Shown one piece after another: positions 4,790 through 32,882 of a stretch of DNA of 64,000 nucleotides. Position numbers and translations under genes: made by a program. The notes under the pieces were generated by a model. It was not told where the DNA came from, did no database searches, and saw only the letters and a list, made by a program, of their open reading frames with translations. Position 1 is the first letter of the stretch. Each line of letters starts with the position of its first letter. The stretch is from sequence record OP744025. The stretch is one strand, 5' to 3'. This DNA is from Escherichia phage A5-4.

Positions 4790-5221
4790 ATGGCTAAAGC
4801 ACATGTTGTAACTCTCGAAGGTAACTACTCTGATATCGTACTGGGCCGTGTTGTTGCATTTGGTGACACTGGTTGGAACTTTGAAGAATTAGAAATGGAT
4901 TATACTGCTGATCTGGTCGCAGGTCTGCTGGTTAAAGCTGATGGTACTCCGGCTGCTGTTGCAGACGCTGCTGACGTTTACGGTGTTCTGGTTGACCGTA
5001 AAGTTCTGCCTGGTGTTACCAAGCATGACGGCGCTACCCCGATGGCTGGTGAGAAGCTTCCTATGACTATCGCTGTTCGTGGTCTGACCCTGAACGCAAC
5101 CAAACTGGTCTACGCTGACGGTACTGCAATTGACGCTGCTGGTCGCCTAGCTCTGTCTAAAGCTGGTAACCAAGTAACTGATCGTGTAGTAGCTACCGAA
5201 TTCCTCGGCGCTGTCCTGTAA
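4790..5221 (+). CDS. Putative head decoration or capsid accessory protein
   Basis: 143-aa Ala/Gly/Val-rich protein immediately upstream of major capsid gene. Confidence 0.4.
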   Translation: MAKAHVVTLEGNYSDIVLGRVVAFGDTGWNFEELEMDYTADLVAGLLVKADGTPAAVADAADVYGVLVDRKVLPGVTKHDGATPMAGEKLPMTIAVRGLTLNATKLVYADGTAIDAAGRLALSKAGNQVTDRVVATEFLGAVL

Positions 5222-5244
5222 CTTTTTCGAAGGAGAATATTTAA

Positions 5245-6240
5245 ATGCAAAATGGTGATTTTCAAATCCTGGATTACACTGGCCTGATCTCTACTCTGCC
5301 GCGTGTTGATACCCTGCTTCAAAGCATGAACCTGTTCACTGAGAACTTTGGTCGTACTACTATCGCTAAAATCGAACGTCGTGATGACGGTGCTGGTCAG
5401 ATCAATGCTGTACAGCGTGGTAGCGTTCGTCAGCACCTGGGTAATGATCGTAAAAAGATCGTAAACCTGAACATCCCGTTCTTCCCTCTGGACCGTTCTA
5501 TCGACCGTGCAGACATTCAGAACTTCCGTGAATTCGGTACTGACAACGCTCCGGCAACTGTTGAAGCTGAAGTGGCTCGTCACTTGGCCCGTATTCGTCG
5601 TAGCCATGCAGTTCTGAAGTCTAAAGCAATGTACGCTGCTCTGAAAGGTACTTCCTGGTCGCCAAATGATCCGGTTTGTGATTACGACTACTACGATGTT
5701 TGGGGTGTAACCCAGCAGACTGCTGATGTTGACTTCACCTCTCTGGCTGTTGACCCGATTGAAGTGCTGGAAGCTGAAGCTCGTGCACATATCATCGATT
5801 ACGCAGGTGATCAAGGCGACAACTACGAGATCGTTGTTATGGCATCCCGTCAGTGGTTCTCTGCTCTGATTTCTCACCCGCAGGTAACTGGTGCATACTC
5901 TCAGTATCCGTCTACTCAGGAAATCCTGCGTCGTCGTCTGGGCGGTAATGCTAATAACCGTATCTTCGAACACAAGAACATCCTGTTCATCGAAGACATT
6001 TCCGGTAACATCCCTGCTGGTGAAGCATACATCTTCCCTCGTGGTATCGATCGTATGTTCGAAATCTATTACGCGCCGAGCGACACTCTGGAAGGTGCTA
6101 ACCAAGTAGCTCAGGAACTGTATGTATTCTTCAAAGAATCTCAGTACCTGCGTGAAGCGAAGATCGAATCTGAAACTTCCTTCCTGACTGTTAACAACCG
6201 TCCTGAACTGGTAGTTAAGTCTGTTGGTAAGTTTGAGTAA
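5245..6240 (+). CDS. Major capsid protein (lambda gpE-like)
   Basis: 331 aa; strong RBS; followed by strong terminator; gene order matches lambda C/Nu3/D/E; resembles E-type capsid proteins. Confidence 0.75.
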   Translation: MQNGDFQILDYTGLISTLPRVDTLLQSMNLFTENFGRTTIAKIERRDDGAGQINAVQRGSVRQHLGNDRKKIVNLNIPFFPLDRSIDRADIQNFREFGTDNAPATVEAEVARHLARIRRSHAVLKSKAMYAALKGTSWSPNDPVCDYDYYDVWGVTQQTADVDFTSLAVDPIEVLEAEARAHIIDYAGDQGDNYEIVVMASRQWFSALISHPQVTGAYSQYPSTQEILRRRLGGNANNRIFEHKNILFIEDISGNIPAGEAYIFPRGIDRMFEIYYAPSDTLEGANQVAQELYVFFKESQYLREAKIESETSFLTVNNRPELVVKSVGKFE

Positions 6241-6258
6241 TCTTAATAACTAATTAAA

Positions 6259-6284
6259 GGTCACCTTCGGGTGGCCTTTTTTAT
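6259..6284 (+). terminator. Rho-independent terminator after capsid gene
   Basis: GGTCACC-TTCG-GGTGGCC hairpin followed by TTTTTT. Confidence 0.75.
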
Positions 6285-6364
6285 TATGCCTGTACAATTT
6301 AACCAAAATAGTGTACCATTATAAGATAGGCTATTAATCTAATCAATGACGAAGGAGTTATTTA

Positions 6365-6949
6365 ATGTCTAAGCAAACTCACTTGGAAGTCTTTAAGAGT
6401 GAATATCACATGCTCAAGTTCTTTGGTGAATATCTTGAAAAACTTGATGTAAACACCTCTGCACGTTTAGGTGCATTCCTTTATAGTTACGACGGTAAAC
6501 TGGTTCTTGCTCGTGGACTTTACGATTTCCTAACCCAAATGGAAAAGATGACCGCTCTCGGCATCGATACTATGGCTTCTGCACAAAAAGGTACAAGTTT
6601 CTTAGTGTTTTTCAAAGAAAAACCTAAAGACCCTTTAAAATTTCGATTAGATGTTAAGAAAATCGAGGCTGTTAAAGAAGCTATCGTTGCTGACACCCCG
6701 TCTAAGGTAATGGAAGAGTCTGTTCTTGTCAATACCAAAGTTGAAGAAGTAGAAGTAAAGGCAGAATCATCTGACCGTACTGAAGAAGAAAAAGCACAGA
6801 TCTTGACTAAAGCTGAAGAACTGCGTGATGACAGCAAAAAGGCTGCATCTAAGGCTGCATTGGAAGCTTTCGCTGTGGAATATGGTATTTCACTGAGCAA
6901 AGGCAAAACCTTTGATGGGATGCTTGAAGATTTAGCTGCTGCACTATAA
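6365..6949 (+). CDS. Hypothetical structural-module protein
   Basis: 194-aa ORF with AGGAG RBS; acidic Lys/Glu-rich C-terminus. Confidence 0.6.
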   Translation: MSKQTHLEVFKSEYHMLKFFGEYLEKLDVNTSARLGAFLYSYDGKLVLARGLYDFLTQMEKMTALGIDTMASAQKGTSFLVFFKEKPKDPLKFRLDVKKIEAVKEAIVADTPSKVMEESVLVNTKVEEVEVKAESSDRTEEEKAQILTKAEELRDDSKKAASKAALEAFAVEYGISLSKGKTFDGMLEDLAAAL

Positions 6950-7002
6950 TCCCACCTCATGCCCCTGTTCAGGGGCTTAAAATCCCTAGGAGAATTTTAT
7001 AA

Positions 7003-10000
7003 ATGGCTGAATATAATGATAAGGTCGTGGAAGCATTCGTTACTGCCCCAGATCCTGTCGTAACTACCACTGGTGGTGGAGTTATTTTTGACGGTATTGA
7101 AACAGAAGATACTGTATCAACCCTGCTGATTGGTGATGGTACTGCATCCTCCCCTTTACAAGCGCAAGTCAAACTTTCTCGCCGTGCTGGTAACGCCCTG
7201 ACTATCGTTCAATCCGATACCGAGCAAGGCTTGTTTGCTACTGCCGGAGATGCTAAAGTTTCAGCTTCTCAAGTGAACATTGCAAAATACGTAACTGCGG
7301 AAGAAGCTGCTGCACAAGGCGATGCAGGTCTGGAAGGTATTTTGGTAGAGCCTGTCCATGCGACCACCACCGCAGTTGGCGATGCCTTGGAAATTACCGC
7401 AGATCCTTTGACGGCTAAAAAATCCCGCATTTCCCTGAAAGTTTCCCCTTCCGCAACCAACGCGTTATCTGTAGAGTCAGATGGATTGGCAGTTAAAGTC
7501 TCTCCTGCCGTTGACAACAGCCTGCAAGTCCGTGAAGGTGCACTTTACGTAGCTCCTGTTGGTGCTGATATTTCTCAAGACCCAGGTAACAAACTGGAAC
7601 AGCGTTCAGATGGACTGTTCGTAGAAACCATCAAAGGCGACAAAGGTGATCAGGGCGAGCAAGGACCAGAAGGTCCTCAAGGCCCAGCAGGGGAAGCTGG
7701 ACCTGCTGGACCACAGGGTGAAAAAGGCGACAAAGGCGATCAAGGTGAAGTCGGCCCTGCTGGCGCAACTGGCCCTGCTGGCCTGACTGGTGCAACTGGT
7801 CCTCGTGGTATAGAAGGACCTCGTGGCCCTGCTGGTATTGGTATTAATATCCTAGACACCCTTGCATCTGAAGACCAATTACCTTCTGTTGTTGATCTTT
7901 CGAATGGGGATACCTATGTAATAGGACAGAGTTTCTTTACCGTTATCACTGAAGGTGGTATCAAACAATGGAGAAACGTAGGTAACTTCGCTGGACCTGA
8001 AGGTCTTTCTGCATTTGAAGTTGCTGAAACCGCAGGCTTTGTTGGAACAGTTGATGACTGGTTGGCTACCCTTCGTGGTGCTGATGGAATCGGTCTGCAA
8101 TTACTCGGTTCTTTCCAACGAATTGAAGACCTTCCGGCAGAAGAGAACAACCCAGGCGATGCCTACATCATTCAAGAAAAGATGTATGTTTGGACTGGTG
8201 ATACAGATGGCTGGCAACCTGTAGGACAGATCGGTCCTGAAGGTCGTTCTGCTTATCAGGTCTGGCTGGCTAACGGGAACGTAGGTTCTCAGCGTGAATT
8301 CCTTGAATCACTGAAAGGTGAGAAAGGTGATACTGGCGATCAGGGTCCTCAGGGTATCCCAGGTGCAGATGGTAAAAATGCTAACGCCATTAATATCTTA
8401 GGTTCCGTTGCAGATCAGGCGAGTTTGCCAGAAGGTGCAGATGCAGGTGATGCTTACCTGATCGGTACTAACGTATTCGTTTCTGATGGTGCTGGCAACT
8501 GGCAAGACTTGGGATCTTTCCAAGGTCCGCAAGGTCCTACTGGTGCTAAAGGCGACAAGGGGGACAAAGGGGACAAAGGGGACAAAGGCGATAAAGGTGA
8601 TGACAACTATGCCATCGCAGTTGCTAACGGTTTCCAAGGATCAGTAAATGAATACCTTGCATCTATCAAGGGTGAGAAAGGTGACGTTGGTGCAACTGGC
8701 CCTCGTGGATTAGCTGGTCCACAAGGTGAACAAGGTCCTGTTGGTGCGGGTCTGAATATCCTTGGCTCAGTAGCTTCCGAAGACCAATTGCCTCAGACTG
8801 GTATTAGTGAAGGTGATGCTTATCTGATTGAAGCTGATCTTTATATCTTTACTGGTGGTCAGTGGACTAACGTTGGTAACATCAAAGGTCCCCAAGGGGA
8901 TGTAGGACCACAAGGTCCACAAGGTCCTATTGGTCTGACTGGTGCACAAGGACCGCAGGGTGCAACAGGGGCACAAGGTCCTGCTGGTCCCCAAGGTGAG
9001 ACTGGTCCACAAGGTGGTATTGGTCCACAGGGCGAGACTGGCGAGAAAGGTGACAAGGGCGATAAGGGTGATACTGGAATTGGTATCGTTGCTCGTGGTA
9101 TTGTTGCAACTCAAGAAGCACTTCCTGCCGATGCCACCACTGGTGACTTCTACGTTGTAGAGTCTGAAGGTAATGGTTATGCTTGGGACGGCACTGCATG
9201 GGTACTGACTGGTCTTACTCGTGGACCTCAGGGTCTGAAGGGCGACAAAGGCGACACTGGTGAGAAAGGAGACAAAGGAGACAAAGGCGACGCAGGTGAT
9301 GCACTGAAGCTGAAAGGTTTGGTTGCAACCTCCACTGAACTTCCTTCTACTGCTGAATTAGGTGACTTCTACGTAGCTGAAGACACTGGGATCGGTTACG
9401 CTTGGGATGGCGTGGAATTCGTTTCTGCCGGAACCGTTAGAGGACCGCAAGGTGAAGTAGGGCCTCAGGGTGAAATTGGTCCTCAAGGACCGCAAGGCGA
9501 GAAGGGAGATGCTGGCGACCAAGGACCTCAAGGATTGGTCGGTGAAACAGGTGCAAAAGGTGATAAAGGGGATAAGGGTGACGTTGGCTCTGGTCTGATT
9601 CCGAGAGGAACTTTACCGTCTCAAGCAGACCTTCCTCAAACTGGTGAAGTTGGTGACTTCTACGTAGCTAACGATACTGGTATTGGATATGCTTTTGACG
9701 GAACTACATTCGTAGAAGCTGGCGTTGCCCGTGGTCCACAGGGTGAACAAGGACCTCAGGGTGAACAGGGACCTCAAGGTCTTAAAGGGGATACTGGTGA
9801 AACAGGTGCTCAGGGACCTCAAGGTGCTCAAGGTGAGAAAGGTGATACCGGAGAACGTGGAGAGGTAGGTCCGCAAGGTGATCAGGGTCCGCAAGGTGAG
9901 CAAGGTCCTCAGGGTGATATCGGACCAGGTGTAGAGATCATTGGACGATTTGATACCTCTGATGAATTACCTTCCACGGGTACTTTGGGTCAAGGTTACC

Positions 10001-10794
10001 TTATCCAAGGCGACTTCTGGGGTTGGACTGGTGCAGCATACGAGAACTTGGGTCGTATTCAAGGTCCGGTTGGACCAGTAGGTCCTACGGGTGACCAAGG
10101 ACCACAAGGCCCTGTCGGTAACAAAGGCGATAAAGGCGACCAAGGGACCCTTTGGGTAGTTTTTGCTCGTGCACCAATGGTGAGCGATGGTCGTGTTAAC
10201 GACCTGTACCTCAACTCTTCCACTCTGGAATATTACCGTAAAACTTCCGCAACGAACTGGGCACTGCTCGGATTCTTAGGTGGTGGTAACGTGTATGACG
10301 CACCAGGGGACGGAAAGCTGTATGTCCGTACTGATGGTGGTTGGGTTGAATTACCTACCGCAGAAGTTCTGGAAGCACCTCGTGATGGTAACCAATACGT
10401 CCGTAAAGACGGCGCTTGGACAACTGTTACAGTTCCTGTAACGGAAGCACCACTTGAAGGTGGATTCTACGTCCGTGAAAATGGTGCGTGGGTTAAACTG
10501 GATCAGTACGATTTACGTGTTGTTGCTTCAACTGGTGCAATTGATGCAAGCTCTGGTAATGCTTGGACTTTAGATGGTACAACCAACAAGTCCTTGACTA
10601 TCACCGGATTGCCAGCAGGAAGGGCTAAAACCATAGTTTTACGATTCACTGGTAACGGTGGTCAGATTAACTGGGATAGCCAGATCGCTTGGTCTAACGG
10701 AACAGCACCTACTCTCGGGGCTACTCGCACTATCCTAACCTTGTTCTGGGATGGTGAGTTCCTGACGGGTACTCAAGCAATGACTATAGGTTAA
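7003..10794 (+). CDS. Collagen-like repeat structural protein (modular fibre)
   Basis: 1263 aa; many Gly-X-Y runs (GDKGDKGD, GPQGPQG) alternating with about eight ~45-aa modules carrying SAYQVWL / EFLESLKGEKGD fibre-repeat signatures; non-collagen termini. Confidence 0.85.
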   Translation: MAEYNDKVVEAFVTAPDPVVTTTGGGVIFDGIETEDTVSTLLIGDGTASSPLQAQVKLSRRAGNALTIVQSDTEQGLFATAGDAKVSASQVNIAKYVTAEEAAAQGDAGLEGILVEPVHATTTAVGDALEITADPLTAKKSRISLKVSPSATNALSVESDGLAVKVSPAVDNSLQVREGALYVAPVGADISQDPGNKLEQRSDGLFVETIKGDKGDQGEQGPEGPQGPAGEAGPAGPQGEKGDKGDQGEVGPAGATGPAGLTGATGPRGIEGPRGPAGIGINILDTLASEDQLPSVVDLSNGDTYVIGQSFFTVITEGGIKQWRNVGNFAGPEGLSAFEVAETAGFVGTVDDWLATLRGADGIGLQLLGSFQRIEDLPAEENNPGDAYIIQEKMYVWTGDTDGWQPVGQIGPEGRSAYQVWLANGNVGSQREFLESLKGEKGDTGDQGPQGIPGADGKNANAINILGSVADQASLPEGADAGDAYLIGTNVFVSDGAGNWQDLGSFQGPQGPTGAKGDKGDKGDKGDKGDKGDDNYAIAVANGFQGSVNEYLASIKGEKGDVGATGPRGLAGPQGEQGPVGAGLNILGSVASEDQLPQTGISEGDAYLIEADLYIFTGGQWTNVGNIKGPQGDVGPQGPQGPIGLTGAQGPQGATGAQGPAGPQGETGPQGGIGPQGETGEKGDKGDKGDTGIGIVARGIVATQEALPADATTGDFYVVESEGNGYAWDGTAWVLTGLTRGPQGLKGDKGDTGEKGDKGDKGDAGDALKLKGLVATSTELPSTAELGDFYVAEDTGIGYAWDGVEFVSAGTVRGPQGEVGPQGEIGPQGPQGEKGDAGDQGPQGLVGETGAKGDKGDKGDVGSGLIPRGTLPSQADLPQTGEVGDFYVANDTGIGYAFDGTTFVEAGVARGPQGEQGPQGEQGPQGLKGDTGETGAQGPQGAQGEKGDTGERGEVGPQGDQGPQGEQGPQGDIGPGVEIIGRFDTSDELPSTGTLGQGYLIQGDFWGWTGAAYENLGRIQGPVGPVGPTGDQGPQGPVGNKGDKGDQGTLWVVFARAPMVSDGRVNDLYLNSSTLEYYRKTSATNWALLGFLGGGNVYDAPGDGKLYVRTDGGWVELPTAEVLEAPRDGNQYVRKDGAWTTVTVPVTEAPLEGGFYVRENGAWVKLDQYDLRVVASTGAIDASSGNAWTLDGTTNKSLTITGLPAGRAKTIVLRFTGNGGQINWDSQIAWSNGTAPTLGATRTILTLFWDGEFLTGTQAMTIG
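8551..8604 (+). repeat. Tandem 9-bp coding repeat (GDK)n
   Basis: ggcgacaag/ggggacaaa units repeated about six times within the collagen gene. Confidence 0.8.
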
Positions 10795-10803
10795 TTTTTA
10801 AAT

Positions 10804-10825
10804 GGGGGCTTAGGCCCCCTCTTTC
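10804..10825 (+). terminator. Putative weak terminator hairpin
   Basis: GGGGGC-TTAG-GCCCCC hairpin then CTCTTT. Confidence 0.4.
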
Positions 10826-10839
10826 AGAAAGGAGTTAAT

Positions 10840-11475
10840 ATGGTGATCGATAAGATTTATGGCTGGACCCCCATGATCCGCATGTCTGACATGCGTTATC
10901 CGGTATACCTGGCCGACTACCGTGCTGAATATCCTAACGTATCTATTGGTAGCTTTGTTTACGCTGTCGGTATGGCTGAAGTTGGATATCATGCGGTTTA
11001 TGATGTACCGATGCCGCAAGGTGATGTTGTTACGGAAGGACTTCCAGAATTACGAGAAGACGGTTTCTGGTACAGAACTTGGAACGTTAGAGATTTCACC
11101 GAGCAAGAGATTGCCGATAATCTTATCCGTGAAAAAGAGCAACGCATCAATGAAGCTCGAATGGTTCTAGATAATGAAAGATCTGAGGGTGTTTTTGTAT
11201 CCGGTAAAAGATATCAATCCGACGCTCAAGCTTTTACTTATTACAGTTCTATCTCTGCTGTTGCTAAAGATTCACCTGAAGGTGTTTTTCACTTAGTGAC
11301 CTCTGACAATCAGGTGGAGGAATTTTTTGGTGATGACGTTATTGTCCACATCAAAGAAATTCAAAAAGTAAATGCAAAAATTTACGATGAGTTTGCTAAA
11401 ATTGTAAAAGTTATCCGCGAAGCAAAATCCCCTGAAGAAATCCCTCAAGTTCCTCCCTCGTTCCAAAATATCTAA
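10840..11475 (+). CDS. Hypothetical protein between collagen-like genes
   Basis: 211-aa ORF with GGAG RBS; possible fibre chaperone by position only. Confidence 0.6.
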   Translation: MVIDKIYGWTPMIRMSDMRYPVYLADYRAEYPNVSIGSFVYAVGMAEVGYHAVYDVPMPQGDVVTEGLPELREDGFWYRTWNVRDFTEQEIADNLIREKEQRINEARMVLDNERSEGVFVSGKRYQSDAQAFTYYSSISAVAKDSPEGVFHLVTSDNQVEEFFGDDVIVHIKEIQKVNAKIYDEFAKIVKVIREAKSPEEIPQVPPSFQNI

Positions 11476-11507
11476 TTAATCTCCTAACGTAACAGAAGGA
11501 TGTAAAA

Positions 11508-13091
11508 ATGAGTACACTTGCTCGTGGTATTGCAGGAGAACAAAGAGGCGTATTTTATGGATATGCTCTTTACGATCTGGAACAAAAAAGAAAGATAGCC
11601 TTTAAAGATTTAACTAAGGGTGACTCAGGGGCAAAGGGCGATAAGGGTGATCCTGGTCCAGAAGGTCCACAAGGTGATAAAGGAGATACCGGAGAGCAAG
11701 GCCCTGTAGGACCTCAAGGTCCTGCTGGTGCAACAGGGCCACAAGGTGTGTCTGGTGAAAGAGGACCTCAAGGTCCCGAAGGTCCTGTAGGACCTCAAGG
11801 TCCAATTGGTCCCGAAGGCCCAGTAGGGCCAATTGGCCCCCAAGGTCCAGAAGGTCCTAAAGGAGAGCAAGGTGACCAAGGCCCTTCTGGATCTCAAGGC
11901 CCTCAAGGATTAAAAGGGGATACAGGGCCACAAGGACCTCAAGGTCCCGTTGGACCCAGAGGAGAGACAGGTGCAACAGGACCTGTTGGACCTAAAGGGG
12001 ACACAGGCCCAACAGGTCCAAAAGGAGAAACGGGTGAACAGGGACCCATTGGTCCGCAAGGACCTAAGGGTGATACAGGGCCTGTGGGTCCTGCAAGCTT
12101 AACCTTCAGAGGTTTCTATGAACCTCTTGAAGAATACAACGAAAAGGATACAGTAGCTTATAATGGTTCTACTTATTTTGCGTTAAGAACCAGTACAGGA
12201 GCAACACCGGATATTTCTCCCGATGACTGGGCATTACTTGCAGCTGAAGGTGCAGTTGGACCACAAGGACCTATGGGACCAGAGGGTCCGCAAGGTATCG
12301 CTGGTGCTCAAGGTCAGGAAGGCCCTGTAGGACCGCAAGGTGAACAGGGTCCGGTTGGACCTGTTGGCCCACAAGGCCCACAAGGTCCTGCGGGTCAGGA
12401 AGGAATAGAAGGACCTCAGGGACCTCAAGGAGAAGAAGGCCCTGTGGGACCTCAGGGACCACAAGGGATTGTAGGACCAACAGGTCCACAAGGCCCTCAA
12501 GGCCCCAAAGGGGACACTGGTGCAGTTGGACCACAAGGTCCTCAAGGCCAACAAGGTCTTGATGGTCCACAAGGCCCTGCTGGTCCGCAAGGCGAAAGAG
12601 GTGTTACTGGACTAACCGGACCCCAAGGTCCCAAGGGTGATATCGGCCCTGTGGGTCCGGCTGGCCCTCAAGGTAAGGATGGTAATTCTTACACTATCTA
12701 CAACTGGGGCAACATATCAACGGGCTATGGTGAGATGGTAATACCTGGTGTTACTAACACAGTATTCAGAGTGAGACGAGTAGGAACCACATTAGAATAC
12801 AGTGTACTTAGTAAAGGTGGTGCGAATAGATACCTTGACTTCCATACCATAATTCCAGCCCCCTCTACAGGGGGCGCTGTAATTATCCAATCAGGAAATA
12901 CAACATTGACATCCTCCAGCTCTTTAAATGTTGTTACATCTGCACCTCCTGGTCTTGGTTTTCGACCAATATTCATCTCTTTAAAAGAGTGGGGAGATAG
13001 GGCAATAGTAACCATAGAGGTTTTCCACACAGGTAGAAGTGGAGATGCCAGTTACCCAATACATGTTCGTATGCTAACGACGAAGTATTGA
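11508..13091 (+). CDS. Collagen-like repeat protein with globular C-terminal domain
   Basis: 527 aa; long GPQGP/GxY runs; C-terminal ~150 aa non-collagen. Confidence 0.85.
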
Positions 13092-13097
13092 CATGAA

Positions 13098-13125
13098 AGC
13101 CACCTTCGGGTGGCTTTATTTTTAT
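13098..13125 (+). terminator. Rho-independent terminator
   Basis: AGCCACC-TTCG-GGTGGCT hairpin then TTATTTTTAT. Confidence 0.7.
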
Positions 13126-13181
13126 ACAAATGACTTTCTTTTAATTTTGTGATAACATGTTTTAATACACTGGAGGAATAT

Positions 13182-13703
13182 ATGACTGATGAAGAAGTAG
13201 TACAACTTGTCCGTAACTTTTTAGGCGGTCTTACTGAAGATGAAATGCCTGATAGCATGATTCTGTTTTTCTATAATAAATGGAAGGTCTGTTATGATTT
13301 AGAAAACAGACCTGATCAATTCTCCATTATTCTTTATAACACCGTATTAGATTGTGTCCGCTGGCTTCTGGTTCAAAGCGTTTCAAGTGGTGCTTCTGGC
13401 ATCCGTGAAAGATTTGAGAAGGTAGGTGATGAGACGATATCTGTTAAGTATGGAGATAGCTCAGGTAATTGGCAAAATTTCTTGGATTACCTGCTTGAAC
13501 ATCCCGAATATATAGATCCTTGTTTAAAAGAGGCAAACGGGAATGGTTTAGGTCTTGTCATCATTGGCGGCGTAAGAAGAAATGAAGTTAACCGTGTTCG
13601 TAGAAACCCAAATTCTCATAACGGTTTCATGGAGCAAGGTATCTATCCCGCACCAGGTACAAGATCCAGTGTAAGAAAGCGTAATCCGTGGATGGTTAAG
13701 TAA
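13182..13703 (+). CDS. Hypothetical head-tail region protein
   Basis: ATG at 13182 preceded by GGAGG RBS (track starts at upstream GTG 13149). Confidence 0.55.
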   Translation: MTDEEVVQLVRNFLGGLTEDEMPDSMILFFYNKWKVCYDLENRPDQFSIILYNTVLDCVRWLLVQSVSSGASGIRERFEKVGDETISVKYGDSSGNWQNFLDYLLEHPEYIDPCLKEANGNGLGLVIIGGVRRNEVNRVRRNPNSHNGFMEQGIYPAPGTRSSVRKRNPWMVK

Positions 13704-13766
13704 AGCTTTGAGTTTGTTGCTTTTGCTCATCTATTGTGGTAAAATAACTTTCATGGAGAAATAACC

Positions 13767-14228
13767 GTGAAGAAAACATCGACAATTGATTTTTCTGTCA
13801 TGGATCGCTATTTCGACCAACTCTCAGATTTAGAAACAAAAGAGATTGAGGTGGGCTTCTTTGATGAGGCTCACTATTCTGGTTTAAATATGGCGACTCT
13901 CGCAGCGATTCACGAACTAGGATGGAACAATCTTCCTGAACGTAACTTCATGCTTTCCACATCGATCCATTATCGAGGTGGACTTATCAAGAACCTCAAA
14001 AAACTCAATGATGATTTACTGAAAGGTAAGCCATATGACCCTGTGCTTAAGAAAATAGGTAAAGACTACGCTGACAGCATTCGTTTTACGATTGACCAAG
14101 GTACGTTCTCTAATAACCGAGTGTCTACAGCATGGGCGAGCTATAAAGGGTTCAGTGATGCAATGATCCATTACGGCGATCTTTCAGATTCAGCGAAGTT
14201 TAAGATTGTCCCTCTTACGAAAGACTAA
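13767..14228 (+). CDS. Putative virion morphogenesis / head-tail joining protein
   Basis: 153-aa ORF, GTG start after GGAGA RBS; position between capsid and tail modules. Confidence 0.5.
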   Translation: MKKTSTIDFSVMDRYFDQLSDLETKEIEVGFFDEAHYSGLNMATLAAIHELGWNNLPERNFMLSTSIHYRGGLIKNLKKLNDDLLKGKPYDPVLKKIGKDYADSIRFTIDQGTFSNNRVSTAWASYKGFSDAMIHYGDLSDSAKFKIVPLTKD

Positions 14229-14237
14229 GGAGGCATC

Positions 14238-14678
14238 ATGTCTCGTGGCTATTTATTGTTAAGCCGTCGCAATCAGCTTATTCCTCGTATCGAGGTTGAA
14301 GGTCGCAGACGCGCTTATAAAAAGGTTGATCTGGATGACCCGTTTGATAACGGTGGTCTGGAGATTGAATATACACCATTCACGGCTGTTGAATGTGTCA
14401 TTCAACCAATCAGAGGCAAAGCGCTTCGTGACCAGAACAACCAACTGACTACTGCTGGTGAGGAAGATTATGATTCCTACACTGTGTATTCAGAAACTGT
14501 ATTGTATCGTGCACAAGAAGGAACGGATAAACTTTCTGATCAATTGTGGCTTCCCAATTCTGTTGGTGAGAATAGTTGGTTTACAGTAATGAAAGCTGAC
14601 CGTTACCCAAGTGCAGGCAACATGAGATATCGTTACTATCTGATCGCTGTACCTGTTGGAACAGAGGGTGGATTATAA
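14238..14678 (+). CDS. Hypothetical tail-completion region protein
   Basis: 146-aa ORF; GGAGG RBS. Confidence 0.55.
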   Translation: MSRGYLLLSRRNQLIPRIEVEGRRRAYKKVDLDDPFDNGGLEIEYTPFTAVECVIQPIRGKALRDQNNQLTTAGEEDYDSYTVYSETVLYRAQEGTDKLSDQLWLPNSVGENSWFTVMKADRYPSAGNMRYRYYLIAVPVGTEGGL

Positions 14679-15337
14679 TGGATCAATTGCCTAATGAGTT
14701 TACAAACTCCGACGAGATTATGGGCAATCTCACAAGGGTTATCGGTCGTCTCTTGAAAGACGTAACCACTTATAAGGTGGTTGAAGCTGGTGAAACAATC
14801 CCTAAAGTTGAGGGACCATTCATCCTCGTAGACCTCTCAGATTTAAGCCCTCTCGATTGGGAAACAAATCAGATTGTTGAGAATGGTATTACACACACTG
14901 TTCACAACTACACTGCAACATACACACTCACCGCATATCGTGGAAAACCTCACTGGGCATTGACTCGTTTTCATCAGGCATTGAGCCTTGCATGGATAAG
15001 AGATAAATACTTCCCTGTCGGATCACCTTATGCTTACTCGTCCACTTCTTCTATTGCAAGATTAAGAATTCCTCTTAATGAGCAATATTATGAAAACAGG
15101 GCAAGGGTACTGATTACCTTTAACGTTACGTTCGTTGAAAGTGACTTTGGTCAGTTTGAAAATATCGAGAGCATCATTATCGACACCAGTGTTTCAGATC
15201 CTTCTGGAAACAAGATCGAAAATGAAGCCATTGTAGATATCAACGTCAAACCAGGTGGTGATGGTCCTAGTATCCCGCCAGAACCGGAGATTCCTTTCAC
15301 TTACATCGATACTATCGTTACTGTAAACGAGAAGTAA
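14678..15337 (+). CDS. Hypothetical tail-completion region protein
   Basis: 219-aa ORF overlapping previous stop (ATGA coupling). Confidence 0.55.
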   Translation: MDQLPNEFTNSDEIMGNLTRVIGRLLKDVTTYKVVEAGETIPKVEGPFILVDLSDLSPLDWETNQIVENGITHTVHNYTATYTLTAYRGKPHWALTRFHQALSLAWIRDKYFPVGSPYAYSSTSSIARLRIPLNEQYYENRARVLITFNVTFVESDFGQFENIESIIIDTSVSDPSGNKIENEAIVDINVKPGGDGPSIPPEPEIPFTYIDTIVTVNEK

Positions 15338-26376: not shown

Positions 26377-28011
26377 ATGGCTAGACCAACAACACCGATT
26401 GTTGTCTTTGCGGCACAAGATGTTAACCTTCCTGGTACTGGAAGACCTAACAAATCAAAACCGATTGATGACCTTTTAGCAAAGGGCTATGACAAAGGGC
26501 AAAAACCAGCGGCAGAAGAATTCAACTATATTCTTCACCAGTCTGGTGCTTGGCTTAATTGGATCGTAGAAGAGAAGTTTCCAGAGGTTGAAGAAGAATA
26601 CAAGCGACTGATTCAGGAACTCGAAACACGAGTAAACAATCAACTGGAAGTTATTCGTGAAGATGTTGCGAACGTAAGACAAGCTGTTGCAACCTTAAGA
26701 ACTTATGTAGAGCAGACTGTTGCAGATCTTCGTCGTGAGATCACTGCGGTTGATCAGCGTGTTACTCGTTTGTCTCAAGACTTGGATAATGCTGTTTCCA
26801 GATTGAACGCACGTATTGATGAACTTGAACCCCGTTTAGTCCCTATTGGTGCAATATTGACTTGGGCTGGTCAGGTCCCTCCTGCGGGATTCTTAGAGTG
26901 TAATGGTCAGGTATTTAGTACATCACAGAACCCGAAACTATATGAGGTTCTGGGAAGAAACGTGGTGCCTGATTATCGTGGACTCTTCCTTCGTGGATGG
27001 GCACATGGTTCTGGTGCTTATGATCCAGATTCTGGTCGTGGGTTAGGTTCTATACAAGGGGATGCAATTAGAAACATTACCGGAAACATGGGTTGGGAAA
27101 GTATCCGTACTGACCACGGATATCGCCAATCTGGTGCGCTTTATACTCAAGTTAACTCTTATGCTGGACCAGACCATGACGGTGGAAACCCTGCTGGCGA
27201 CATTAAGTTCGATGCAAGCCGAGTAGTTCCTACCGCACCGGAAAACAGACCTAAGAACGTCGCGGTAATGTATATTATCAAGACTGACCAAGCTCAAGGG
27301 ACAGGGAGTTTATCTCCTACTGCGCTTGTTACGACACCAGATAGCATTACTAACCGTGTTGGATTTACTCGTGGAATTTCTGCACAGGTACTTCCTGCCA
27401 ACTTAGCAAGTCAATACCCTGTAACTTGGACCTCTCAAAATGGTAACGTTGCAACGGTAGATAGTGCGGGTAACGTAAGACTGACTGGCCCAGGTGAGAC
27501 AAACATTATAGCTTCTATCGCTACTGGAATCTCGGCTCAAATTAAGATAGTTTCGTACACAGCCCTGAGTGCCGTTTCTATTGGGACAATACCGAGTATA
27601 CAGGTGAACAGATCTGAACTGATCCCTGTGAATAAAACACCTGCGAACTCTAACGAACCACTTGAATATTCTAGTAGTAATTCTAACGTAGCTGTCGTGA
27701 CTCAAAGCGGGTATGTTTCTGGTGTTGCTCCAGGTACTGCTGTTATTACTGTTCGTGGATCTATTACAGGTATCCAAGCAACGAGACAAGTTACAGTTAT
27801 TCCAGCCGTAATTGTTCAAACTATCGAAGATGTTCGTTTAGGTATTGAGCAACAAACCACTATGAATGGTGATAACTATACCACCCCTGTTCGTGCTCCG
27901 GCAGGATGTGTTATTACTGGTGTTGTTTCAGCGGGACTTGGATTAAACCAAGGTTATTACAAGCCAATCCAGAAGCGTATGTCTGGCGTATGGGTAACGG
28001 TGGAGGGCTAA
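26377..28011 (+). CDS. Tail fibre protein with tail-collar and Ig-like domains
   Basis: Coiled-coil N-part; collar-like motif FLECNGQVFSTSQNPKLYEVLG; tandem Big_2-like segments. Confidence 0.75.
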   Translation: MARPTTPIVVFAAQDVNLPGTGRPNKSKPIDDLLAKGYDKGQKPAAEEFNYILHQSGAWLNWIVEEKFPEVEEEYKRLIQELETRVNNQLEVIREDVANVRQAVATLRTYVEQTVADLRREITAVDQRVTRLSQDLDNAVSRLNARIDELEPRLVPIGAILTWAGQVPPAGFLECNGQVFSTSQNPKLYEVLGRNVVPDYRGLFLRGWAHGSGAYDPDSGRGLGSIQGDAIRNITGNMGWESIRTDHGYRQSGALYTQVNSYAGPDHDGGNPAGDIKFDASRVVPTAPENRPKNVAVMYIIKTDQAQGTGSLSPTALVTTPDSITNRVGFTRGISAQVLPANLASQYPVTWTSQNGNVATVDSAGNVRLTGPGETNIIASIATGISAQIKIVSYTALSAVSIGTIPSIQVNRSELIPVNKTPANSNEPLEYSSSNSNVAVVTQSGYVSGVAPGTAVITVRGSITGIQATRQVTVIPAVIVQTIEDVRLGIEQQTTMNGDNYTTPVRAPAGCVITGVVSAGLGLNQGYYKPIQKRMSGVWVTVEG

Positions 28012-29648: not shown

Positions 29649-32600
29649 GTGTCGTCTAATACTGATATATTGGCACTGGTAAGCACTGAAGCAGACCTCG
29701 CTGTTGATCAGATCATCGAAGACTCTCGAAGACTTCATTTGATCGTCAACGGAACTGCAACAGAACAAGCTGTTACAGAAGATGGTAGCTTAATTCCTAG
29801 TGTACGTAAAGCGATAATTGATAACTTTTATTTTAAAACTCCACCGTTACCGTGGAGAAATGGAAGTTCAGTTATTGAATTCAATCAGTTGTATGCCTTT
29901 ACCGATGTAAATGGCAACGTAACTTGGTGGTATGCCCCAGGTGCAACCAGCAGTACCCCTGTCGTTATGCGAGATAGTCCAATCAACGACGGGAAGTTTA
30001 GACCTTTCTTCGATAAAGGTAACATTCAAGAAACTTACGCCCCTATCCTTTCCCCTGTCTTCCGTGGAAACCCTACCGTACCCCTTGCTGCTGAAGGCGA
30101 TAGCTCATTTACTATCGCGAACACCGCTTGGGTTAGCCGAGAAATAGAAAAAGTACGTGGTGAGGTTCTTGAAGAATCCAGAGGTGAATTCCAAAACATT
30201 ATCGTTGCAGATGATGCGAGTCTGAAAGATCTCTATGTAAGTGGAGAAACCATCTTTACTGGTGATAGGATCGCTGCTCTTGATGCCGAGTTATCTTTAA
30301 AAAGATTACGAATGACAGGTACAGGCGCAGAAATCGCATTTGAACAAAATGGTGTTCCACCCCAAGCAGGATTAACAAAAAGAACAAATATCAAACCTTT
30401 CCAAGTCACCACTGGGGTTGTTGATACAGATAATATAACTGCGAGAGAGATCAAGGTTGGAAATACCTCTGTTTCCACGAATTCCCTCGATGTTGATGGA
30501 TTCATGCAAGGTGACTATCTTCACTTACAGGGTAATGCCAACAACGCAGAAGACCGCCCACAACTGATCGTTGACGGTGTTGCGGAAATAAATACTCTTC
30601 GTGTGACGAACACCATTGAAGGATTGAAGGCTGACGTTGAAGGTCTGGATATTAATCCTAACAGTATTGTGGTTGAAAGAACTGCGGAGATCAAGGGAAA
30701 TACAACCCTTGGTGCAGATCTTTCCGTTTCTGGCAATACCGTATTGAAAGATGTACGCATCGATGGTACTCTTACTGGCGCGGGAATCGGCGTTGATGGT
30801 AAAGATATTTCTCCTCGTAACGTGAGTGCAACATCCGTAACAGTTGCAGAGAATTTAAATATCACAGGTCCAACTAATGCTTCCGGCGATGTTACAGTAA
30901 ACAACCTCACTGTTAACGGGACACTTAGAGCAGATATCGATTTTGGAACAAGTGCTGTTGAATTTCAAGATTTAACTGTAACCAATAGAGCTACGATTAA
31001 AGATCTTGAGATCACTGGCAACGTTACAGGTTTTACTCCCTCTGTTGATGGAGAAGCAATATCCCCTTCATCTGTGACAACGACAGGGAACATTGATGTT
31101 GGAAACAATCTACGTGTCCGTGGCGATCTTAGCCTAGATGGTGAATTGAGCCTTCCAAGCTTAGATACTGGAGATATCTCCGCTGCTGAAATTGACGCTG
31201 CAAGTCTTTCGGTTAGTGGTGACATTACCGCAGGGACAACCTCGACTACAACGGTTAATAATCTTGTGGTAACAGGAACCACTACAGGAATCACTGTAAC
31301 GGGAAATGTTGATGGGCAAGACATTCTCCCATCGTCGGTAGAAACAACGTCTGTAGAAGCTTCTGAGAGCGTTACAACGGCAAACCTGACAGCCACTGGA
31401 GAAACTCAGGTAAATAACCTGACAATCACGGGAACTGTAACAGGTTTTGAAGTAGACCTCACTGGAAGGGACATTCAGGTTAATACCCTGACGGTTACTC
31501 GTGGATCAACTTTTGACGAGGTTACTGCTAATAACATAACCAACAATCAAAAGATTACTACGGTAGATCTTCAGGTAACTGGAAACCTGACAAATGCCAA
31601 TGGTGAGCAATTCTTTGCAAACGTCACTGGTCAAGACATTCTTCCAAATAGTGTGCAGTCTGCAACGTCTGTGAGAACTAAAACGCTACGTGTCGAAGAG
31701 ACTAGCCTCTTGGAAGGTGCTGTTACCTTAAATGATGGTTTGACTATCACCGCTGGTAATATCACATCTGTTCAAGGTCAAGCAAGCTTCAATGACGTAC
31801 AGGTATTTGGATCTCTTCTGGACGCGAATGGTAACGCCTTAGGGACAGCGGAAAGCATAAACGGTAAAGATATCTCTCCCCGTAGCGTAACCGCTCAAGT
31901 TGAGATTCAGACTACTGCAATTGTTGCTACAGGTCAAGCTGAAGTTGGTTCTTTGATTTCAACTGGACAAGTAACGGCAGGAAGCTTAGAGGTTTCAGGG
32001 ATAGGCAACATTGATCAAGTCATCACCGATGATATCCGTGCTGGTAAAGTGACTTCCGGTAACACTGTTATCACTCGCACTGTCGGGTCTAATGACCCCG
32101 CTCTTGAAGTTCGTGGACCAGGTGAGATTCAGGGCGACCTTAATGTAACCGGAACTGTAACTGGTAACATTGACCTTAGCTCTCAAGACGTTAACGTTGC
32201 TTCTATGACCTCAACGGGAACAGTAAATGCCCTTTCCATTGAGTCTCGTACATCGGTAACTGGATTGTCTGGTACATTCGGTGAAGATTATGAAGGTGCA
32301 CCTACCTATGGTATAACTTCTCTTTCCGGCGCAAACATCAACAAGAACCTTCGAGTTGGTGGAAACCTGACTGTTGTTGGTAACATCTCTGGCAATATCG
32401 ACTTATCTGGAAAGGCGATCGAGCCTGCATCTTTGTCTACCACGACAGCTACGTTAACGACGGCGAACATAACAGACCTGACTGTAACTGGTCAGTTTAA
32501 TATCCCGACTGTACCGTTAAATGTTCAATCCCTTAGTTCTGAAAACGCTATTTCTGCAAGCAAGTTCAGCACCACACCAAAAGAAGTAAGCACCACCTCT

Positions 32601-32882
32601 TCTTCTTACATCCCAGACGGCTCAACGAGCATATATAACGTAAACGTTATAAATGATGTTGAAGTGAAAGCGCCGATTGGCCTGTTGAGTTCAGGAAAAG
32701 GTGAGTCAGTATTCCTCTTCTTTGAACAGGATGGTACTGGTGGACATGCGGTAACATTCGGATCGGAGTTTGTTGTGCACGGTACTGAAACCATCAACAC
32801 AGATGCAAACACTGTGTCGGTAGTTAACATGGTTTATCGTGGCAAAGGCCCATTGATTGACGTATTCATCACTCGTCGCTAA
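29649..32882 (+). CDS. Large tail fibre / tail spike protein
   Basis: 1077 aa; N-terminal TAWVSREI-type attachment motif; long iterated NxT/GxVxG beta-helix-like repeats; GTG start after GAGGAG. Confidence 0.8.
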   Translation: MSSNTDILALVSTEADLAVDQIIEDSRRLHLIVNGTATEQAVTEDGSLIPSVRKAIIDNFYFKTPPLPWRNGSSVIEFNQLYAFTDVNGNVTWWYAPGATSSTPVVMRDSPINDGKFRPFFDKGNIQETYAPILSPVFRGNPTVPLAAEGDSSFTIANTAWVSREIEKVRGEVLEESRGEFQNIIVADDASLKDLYVSGETIFTGDRIAALDAELSLKRLRMTGTGAEIAFEQNGVPPQAGLTKRTNIKPFQVTTGVVDTDNITAREIKVGNTSVSTNSLDVDGFMQGDYLHLQGNANNAEDRPQLIVDGVAEINTLRVTNTIEGLKADVEGLDINPNSIVVERTAEIKGNTTLGADLSVSGNTVLKDVRIDGTLTGAGIGVDGKDISPRNVSATSVTVAENLNITGPTNASGDVTVNNLTVNGTLRADIDFGTSAVEFQDLTVTNRATIKDLEITGNVTGFTPSVDGEAISPSSVTTTGNIDVGNNLRVRGDLSLDGELSLPSLDTGDISAAEIDAASLSVSGDITAGTTSTTTVNNLVVTGTTTGITVTGNVDGQDILPSSVETTSVEASESVTTANLTATGETQVNNLTITGTVTGFEVDLTGRDIQVNTLTVTRGSTFDEVTANNITNNQKITTVDLQVTGNLTNANGEQFFANVTGQDILPNSVQSATSVRTKTLRVEETSLLEGAVTLNDGLTITAGNITSVQGQASFNDVQVFGSLLDANGNALGTAESINGKDISPRSVTAQVEIQTTAIVATGQAEVGSLISTGQVTAGSLEVSGIGNIDQVITDDIRAGKVTSGNTVITRTVGSNDPALEVRGPGEIQGDLNVTGTVTGNIDLSSQDVNVASMTSTGTVNALSIESRTSVTGLSGTFGEDYEGAPTYGITSLSGANINKNLRVGGNLTVVGNISGNIDLSGKAIEPASLSTTTATLTTANITDLTVTGQFNIPTVPLNVQSLSSENAISASKFSTTPKEVSTTSSSYIPDGSTSIYNVNVINDVEVKAPIGLLSSGKGESVFLFFEQDGTGGHAVTFGSEFVVHGTETINTDANTVSVVNMVYRGKGPLIDVFITRR

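Follow-up and report, generated by a model that had tools for sequence, protein, structure and literature searches.

A giant modular collagen-like virion fibre encoded between the capsid and neck genes of Escherichia phage A5-4

A 64,000-nucleotide stretch of DNA from Escherichia phage A5-4 (record OP744025), which we analysed as a whole and call the window, carries at 7003-10794 on the + strand a gene for a giant collagen-like fibre protein of 1263 amino acids (aa) and ~129 kDa. Its family is already catalogued, the phage genus is published, and proteomics has confirmed the protein as a virion fibre there. An earlier reading of the DNA letters, referred to below as the original prediction, had described a giant modular collagen-like structural protein; this description is borne out by nine Gly-X-Y runs, exactly eight copies of a ~46-aa module, and mass spectrometry (MS) of virions. 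We read the protein as a homotrimeric, beaded collagen fibre that is mounted on the tail or baseplate and serves in long-reach adhesion, and we assign this reading as a whole a probability of roughly 0.55.

The start codon is ATG, and an AGGAG ribosome-binding site precedes it by 8 nt. The PHROG 3904 profile, annotated "tail fiber", matches the full-length protein (E=0, 1063 bits), and the N- and C-terminal regions each match the same profile when searched separately. Orthologs include A71_110 of phage A7_1, W70_131, phiTE_215 (~55% identical to the window fibre), CB7_10, CR9_008, and PVP-SE1 gp068. Over bases 5000-13200 of the window the closest relative is the Escherichia phage A7_1 (99.4% DNA identity), followed by A73 and W70 (99.2%) and by UPEC06 and LTH01 (91-93%); these five phages belong to the genus Septuagintavirus in the subfamily Vequintavirinae (PMC11370258). 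The gene is labelled "tail fiber protein" or "collagen triple helix repeat-containing protein" in the relatives' records. The fibres of A7_1 and A73 differ from that of the window by one substitution (T782A) and one extra GDK triplet, and the closeness of the W70 fibre is taken from the 99.2% identity of the 8.2-kb region rather than from an alignment of the gene itself. Open reading frames on the opposite strand of the gene, the longest of 115 aa, were regarded as a side effect of its G+C-rich, repetitive coding sequence.

Presence in the virion, which the original prediction had made decisive for its proposal, is evident from MS of two related phages. In W70, electrospray ionisation tandem MS (ESI-MS/MS) of purified particles places W70_131 (phrog_3904, 129 kDa) at the top of 28 virion proteins with 2032 spectra, ahead of W70's major capsid protein (MCP) with 1596. 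The same data contain 114 spectra for W70_130, the ortholog of the next gene product downstream (p211), and 728 for W70_129, a second collagen protein, and W70_132, the ortholog of the upstream gene product p194, was undetected. In virions of Pectobacterium phage CB7, CB7_10 was identified by 39 unique peptides, CB7_11 by 7, and CB7_12 by 8; CB7_9 is not listed (PMC7344957).

Collagen sequence makes up ~30% of the fibre. Counting runs of at least four triplets, we find nine, each of 7-23 Gly-X-Y triplets and together comprising 128, and Pfam Collagen (PF01391) matches the protein with an E value of 3e-45 (152 bits; cut-off 27). The X position is mainly P, D, or E and the Y position mainly Q, K, or T. 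Run 1, with 23 triplets and a Pfam Collagen match, occupies 7636-7842; runs 2 to 9 follow at 8317-8379, 8524-8604, 8671-8751, 8887-9084, 9223-9303, 9442-9594, 9733-9930, and 10063-10152 (all + strand, as are all other features of the fibre gene given below).

Between the collagen runs lie eight related modules of 44-50 aa, with pairwise identities of 25-58% and the consensus G.Gl.ilG.va....LP.t.....GD.Yvi......wdG....w...G. They are located at 7840-7989 (module 1, aa 280-329), 8092-8232 (module 2, aa 364-410), 8386-8523 (module 3, aa 462-507), 8749-8886 (module 4, aa 583-628), 9082-9222 (module 5, aa 694-740), 9301-9441 (module 6, aa 767-813), 9592-9732 (module 7, aa 864-910), and 9928-10062 (module 8, aa 976-1020). 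Each scores 57-73 bits against the joint profile, which found nothing in 200 shuffles of the protein. The degenerate signature first proposed for these modules was roughly right, except that 5-7 residues rather than 3 separate LP from GD and that the element 'G-x-G-Y-x-W-D-G' fits modules 5-7 only.

The module is widespread. When the eight-copy profile was run against 1.84 billion proteins, it returned 5176 cluster representatives at E<=1e-3, 808 of them at E<=1e-10, with up to 15 copies in one protein. Seven matches were sampled; six have any Pfam match, and all six of these carry collagen repeats. One of the sampled proteins ends in a Peptidase_S74 intramolecular chaperone, a typical tail-fibre ending. 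No Pfam or NCBIfam family matched the module, and its profile gave chance matches only against PDB sequences. An AlphaFold2 (AF2) model of module 4, built with the eight paralogs as the alignment, has a mean predicted local distance difference test score (pLDDT) of 79 (83-92 in the core) and consists of four beta-strands and a short helix. With this model, Foldseek recovers the module from many viral predicted structures annotated as phage "tail fiber" or "collagen" proteins (TM score 0.7-0.8, 35-50% identity); against the PDB it returned nothing below E 0.6. The predicted four-strand fold weakly resembles the trimerisation domains of the multiplexin collagens XV and XVIII. The idea that the module is itself a foldon-like hairpin was rejected, as a profile-profile comparison of the 8 modules with 10 hairpins gave a probability of 0.3%.

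From the co-occurrence with collagen, the spread, and the predicted four-strand fold, we therefore infer a role for the modules as small nodes of trimerisation and registration, which would nucleate and clamp short hydroxyproline-free triple helices. Such nodes, if autonomous, would explain how a phage assembles collagen fibres on the 100-nm scale and would be useful for engineering recombinant hydroxyproline-free collagens. The current standard tool in recombinant collagen engineering is the T4 foldon.

A second repeated element is a helical motif of the pattern 'SA(Y/F).VA..(A/N)GF.G...(D/E)(W/Y/F)L.(S/T)L(K/R)G', whose three copies, at 7993-8088, 8233-8325, and 8599-8679, deviate somewhat from one another. 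A homologue search with aa 278-445 returned 12 matches, all through the helical motif and none through the beta modules. The related pattern 'SAY.VWL..GN.GT...FL.SLKG' forms long tandem arrays in unrelated database proteins, one of them from the bacterium Peijinzhouia sedimentorum, and several database proteins with such arrays also carry Pfam Mtd_N.

The N-terminal non-collagen region (aa 1-211, 7003-7635), with shaft repeats of the form 'N.L....DGL.V', is the presumed attachment end, and its first 66 residues are conserved across Certre-, Seuna-, and Septuagintaviruses. A protein-database homologue search with these 211 aa found no match; tblastn finds 66 phage records. The C-terminal 213 aa comprise a degenerate ninth module, three tandem foldon-like beta-hairpins (aa 1096-1172, 10288-10518), and a beta-rich distal domain of ~90 aa (aa 1173-1263, 10519-10791), which is a putative ligand-binding tip and is conserved in jumbo phages as well as in Seunavirus. 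The middle hairpin, EAPRDGNQYVRKDGAW, nearly reproduces the T4 fibritin foldon, EAPRDGQAYVRKDGEW, and Pfam Fibritin_C matches aa 1080-1119 with 41.8 bits against a cut-off of 21; PDB foldon entries match as well. For the C-terminal domain the protein database gives 3 matches as compared with 488 phage records by tblastn. The indexed protein collection apparently lacks this phage group (3 or 0 matches against 488 and 66).

Taken together, these parts would form a homotrimeric "beads-on-a-string" fibre. In the proposed architecture, aa 1-211 would provide a short attachment and shaft region; nine collagen rods (384 residues) would add up to ~110 nm of triple helix; the eight beta modules and three helical motifs would act as trimerisation and registration nodes that staple the short triple helices and give hinge points; and a triple foldon-like clamp at the C-terminus would hold the register. 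Because the collagen alone would span ~110 nm, the fibre would be longer than the 100-120 nm tail, likely well over 120 nm. The conserved distal domain would work with the co-inherited virion protein p211. The fibre most likely serves in long-reach, low-specificity adhesion, by which the phage would first touch, reversibly, the surface of the host or appendages on it. Flagellotropism is known for certreviruses and suspected for Septuagintavirus by the authors of the W70 study (PMC11370258); the flagellum is a candidate ligand of the fibre.

Evidence on where the fibre sits on the particle comes largely from phiTE, a Certrevirus and the only relative with a cryo-electron microscopy (cryo-EM) study (PMC11972413). 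According to the main text of that study, the 3.6 Å capsid map comprises the MCP, a trimeric DEC, and a hexamer-centred "Pagoda", the last assigned to pTE217 by MS abundance; the connector comprises portal, adapter, head-completion protein, tail terminator, sheath, and tube; and at the baseplate the short and long tail fibres (STF and LTF) were modelled, with a third fibre nearby left unmodelled (PMC11972413). The words collar, whisker, and head fib- are absent from this main text (PMC11972413). A PDB sequence search finds phiTE_236 and phiTE_241 among the chains of 9cuy, as the STF and the LTF modelled there, and no PDB entry contains phiTE_215 or either of its two neighbours. Since the STF and LTF are thereby assigned and phiTE_215 is the sole remaining annotated fibre in NC_020201, the third fibre described near the baseplate would, by elimination, be phiTE_215. 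Transmission electron microscopy (TEM) of W70 shows thin fibres at the tail (PMC11370258), and a weak match of the N-terminal region to gp015, the baseplate-anchored long tail fibre of Agrobacterium phage 7-7-1 (PDB 9RKV), is a further hint towards the tail. Most likely the fibre of the window attaches to the tail or baseplate, where it would be the counterpart of the unmodelled third fibre of phiTE, and not to the capsid; for this placement by itself we would give odds that are even or slightly better.

Several observations weigh against this placement or against parts of the architecture. The identification of phiTE_215 with the third fibre rests on elimination, not localisation, within what the phiTE main text describes. 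The fibre gene lies among head and neck genes, apart from the tail fibres, and a capsid-decoration gene belongs to the same operon-like cassette. In the W70 data, the fibre has 15.8 spectra per kDa as compared with 8.9 for the LTF and 11.2 for the STF, a higher value that hints at more than 18 copies. The match to gp015, which pairs fibre aa 3-127 with gp015 residues 91-215 (9rkv_M) and includes the motif GDG(T/S)AS.PL.A.VKL...AGN, is weak (E 5.8e-5, 26.5 bits) and consists mostly of generic shaft motif, with ~30 of its residues in the anchor region 1-120. Moreover, gp015 goes on into a beta-helix and a jelly-roll tip with no collagen, and nothing in the fibre corresponds to the main anchor of gp015 (residues 1-90). 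The AF2 model of the C-terminal 213 aa, made from a 4-sequence alignment, is unreliable (pLDDT 54), and a near-invariant C-terminus is unusual for a receptor-binding tip that determines specificity.

The foldon-like clamp raises the alternative of a neck whisker analogous to T4 fibritin (Wac), anchored at the head-tail junction, running along the ~100-120 nm tail, and contacting and regulating the long tail fibres. Fibritin resembles the fibre in having a foldon beta-hairpin near the C-terminus of a trimeric phage fibre (trimeric by inference in our case), the fibre gene adjoins the neck genes, and the estimated length (~110 nm of collagen, to which the nodes add) is similar to that of the tail. 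The phiTE authors also propose that the LTF bends toward the capsid and contacts the third fibre (PMC11972413). The phiTE connector reconstruction, as presented in the main text, is nevertheless without collar or whisker density. Fibritin has a coiled-coil shaft, whereas the shaft here is collagen and beta modules and matched no coiled-coil family in Pfam or PHROGs; the neck-binding N-terminal domain of fibritin is not shared; and three hairpins are followed by ~90 further residues, so the foldon is not terminal as in fibritin. We regard a neck whisker as decidedly unlikely.

A second alternative, the head fibre or decoration favoured by the original prediction, would be a trimer bound to the capsid at pentons or decoration trimers, with long "hairs" that catch flagella or other structures, as in 7-7-1 and phiCbK. 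In its favour are the gene position between the MCP and neck genes, in a terminator-bounded cassette that ends with a Pagoda homologue, and the very high spectrum count in W70; thin, flexible collagen helices would also average out in icosahedral maps. Agrobacterium phage Atu_ph07 has thin "hairy whiskers" described as mainly capsid-associated and encodes two module-bearing "tail fiber" proteins, one of which is the top BFVD structural match, although the link between whiskers and modules is a correlation only. This alternative was not borne out by the phiTE structures: in the main text, the 3.6 Å capsid map is explained by MCP, DEC, and Pagoda with no further attachment reported, no such fibre is listed among the capsid and neck components, and the third fibre is placed near the baseplate. 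The TEM of W70 puts the thin fibres at the tail (PMC11370258), and comparison with known capsid-binding domains (phi29 gp8.5, the P68 head fibre, Hoc, pb10, and the Pagoda anchor) in Pfam, PHROGs, NCBIfam, and the PDB gave no match and thus no likeness to known head-fibre or decoration families. A capsid location for the giant fibre is therefore unlikely in our estimation, and we retain the tail- or baseplate-mounted fibre as the preferred reading. A literature lead on phiKZ gp146 was dropped, as it concerned the unrelated gp146 of Goslar.

The original prediction had also flagged the (KGD)6 run at 8551-8604 as a near-perfect tandem of 9-bp DNA repeats and a likely substrate for slipped-strand length variation. 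The run is real: Tandem Repeats Finder (TRF) reports period 9, 5.6 copies, and 87% matches at 8548-8597 within a repeat spanning 8548-8604. "Near-perfect" was generous, however, as the longest perfect stretch is ~3 units. The length of this run is the same in the window and its five relatives despite synonymous differences, which indicates that it is not being homogenised. Length variation was instead found at another KGD run (9049-9073), which is one 9-bp unit short in the window; the missing GDK unit, at ~9063, is present in A7_1, A73, W70, UPEC06, and LTH01, where the relatives have a perfect two-copy GATAAGGGT x2. The fibre is 1266 aa long in all five.

These data bear on the possibility that the gene is a contingency locus, in which 9-bp repeats would generate frequent in-frame length variants by slipped-strand mispairing and so tune the reach of the fibre or escape defences. 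The clean single-unit difference between the window and five relatives, at a perfect two-copy repeat, speaks for such a process, as does the variation between genera in triplet and module number: 128-129 and 8 in Septuagintaviruses, 95-97 and 7 in phiTE and CR9, 91 and 7 in PVP-SE1, and 82 and 6 in Kashira. Within the small sample of six genomes, though, only one of nine runs varies, by one unit, and the single 9-bp difference may be an assembly error; the flagged (KGD)6 run is invariant while differing synonymously; and the repeats are imperfect as well as short, TRF giving 63-93% matches save for two short two-copy arrays. Relative to UPEC06 and LTH01, the N-terminus, collagen, modules, and C-terminus each have a ratio of nonsynonymous to synonymous substitution rates (dN/dS) within 0.03-0.12, and for the helical motifs it is 0.00 against UPEC06 (0 nonsynonymous changes in 82 codons) and 0.09 against LTH01. 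Given a dN/dS of ~0.1 and near-invariant length within the genus, the fibre gene looks like a strongly constrained structural gene and does not look like a contingency locus, though slippage can occur and has weak support at a run other than the flagged one; we consider frequent phase-variable length change very improbable. The fibre gene is a recombination mosaic. Along it, dS relative to UPEC06 and LTH01 ranges ~ten-fold, from 0.05 to 0.57, and DNA identity to these phages in 150-nt blocks runs from 73% to 100%, with the protein nearly constant.

Comparison with known collagen-like proteins places the fibre among, but apart from, its bacterial counterparts. Like Scl1/Scl2, Lcl, BclA, and EPcl of O157 prophages, it has charged, hydroxyproline-free Gly-X-Y sequence flanked by trimerisation domains (PMC3368898). 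The bacterial proteins have one collagen domain and one globular head, whereas the fibre has nine rods and eight internal nodes, and it scores far under the cut-offs of the NCBIfam bacterial collagen-like models (for example, 192 vs 500); only the collagen repeat is common to both. The closest parallels are the Vequintavirinae orthologs, which share gene position, N- and C-terminal domains, collagen runs, modules, and MS identification as virion proteins, and which differ in dimensions: Septuagintavirus fibres have 8 modules, 128-129 triplets, and 3 hairpins, and Certrevirus fibres 7 modules, ~96 triplets, and 2 hairpins. Homologues of the fibre occur in several Vequintavirinae genera that are under development for biocontrol and therapy.

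As originally described, the gene does lie between the capsid gene and the head-tail genes and apart from the tail fibres: the MCP gene is upstream at 5245-6240, the neck genes are downstream at 13149-15337, and the orthologs of the phiTE STF (26377-28011) and LTF (29649-32882) are far downstream. Two strong intrinsic terminators on the + strand bracket a cassette of four genes, namely p194, the giant fibre, p211, and a 527-aa collagen protein. The upstream terminator (6256-6279; 10-bp stem with 5 GC pairs, T-tract) follows the MCP gene, and the downstream one (13096-13117) corresponds to the phiTE terminator after phiTE_217; they are near-identical stem-loops (AAAGGTCACCTTCGGGTGGCCTTT and AAAGCCACCTTCGGGTGGCTTT), and phiTE terminators are annotated at both places. 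The cassette is syntenic in Certrevirus and Seunavirus, with the order MCP, p194, fibre, p211, variable gene, neck genes, except that p211 is absent from the cassette of Kashira. In rV5 just two small genes separate the MCP gene from the neck genes, and the 42 kb examined (gp028 to gp069) contain no fibre homologue, from which the fibre appears to be accessory within the subfamily.

The last cassette gene (11508-13091, + strand) encodes the second collagen-like protein, COL527, and occupies the position of the phiTE Pagoda gene. Its first ~35 residues align with pTE217, CR9_010, a 110-aa protein of Kashira, and PVP-SE1 gp066, which carries the RefSeq label "head fiber protein"; hhalign to the Pagoda N-terminal motif gives a probability of 87% and an E value of 3.8e-6 over 32 columns. 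In CR9_010 and the Kashira protein this N-terminal motif runs straight into short collagen stretches. On the strength of the shared motif and gene position, the head-fibre idea fits COL527 better than the giant fibre, and COL527 would be the better candidate if the MS-based assignment of Pagoda is correct. The link between COL527 and Pagoda provides a concrete candidate for collagen head fibres in this phage group. A literature search for the PVP-SE1 collagen proteins and for further work on Pagoda produced nothing useful. COL527 has a hypervariable C-terminal stretch of ~120 aa, and phages that are otherwise near-identical differ by many triplets in the length of its collagen; the near-invariant tip of the giant fibre, set against this hypervariable tip, suggests that the giant fibre binds a conserved ligand rather than taking part in strain-specific recognition.

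A wider picture, which we offer tentatively and hold to be doubtful as a whole, would join these elements: the module would be an undescribed, widespread node family, analogous or related to the collagen XV/XVIII domain, that enables long fibres, and the cassette would encode two collagen fibres, with COL527 on the capsid hexamers through a Pagoda-type anchor and the giant protein as a third fibre of the tail, or a whisker, working together with the long tail fibres.

The virion protein p211 (PHROG 4998; 10840-11475, + strand; W70_130 and CB7_11) is encoded directly after the fibre. In Erwinia jumbo phages a p211 homologue lies immediately downstream of the fibre C-terminal domain, and homologues of both occur in Ralstonia and Pseudomonas (phiKZ/EL-like) jumbo phages; more distant p211 homologues are found in Ralstonia, Burkholderia, and Pseudomonas (EL) jumbo phages. 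This adjacency and co-occurrence across families suggests that p211 and the fibre are functional partners at the distal end, and p211 is possibly a tip partner or adhesin. The first cassette gene, p194 (PHROG 3259; 6365-6949, + strand), is 56% identical to phiTE_214, and its last 45 aa match phrog_1051 ("minor head protein inhibitor of protease") and rV5 gp058; p194 is probably an assembly factor and not a virion protein. Directly after the p194 and fibre stop codons lie short G+C-rich hairpins without a T-tract, at 6962-6976 (CCCCTGTTCAGGGG) and 10804-10819 (GGGGGCTTAGGCCCCC).

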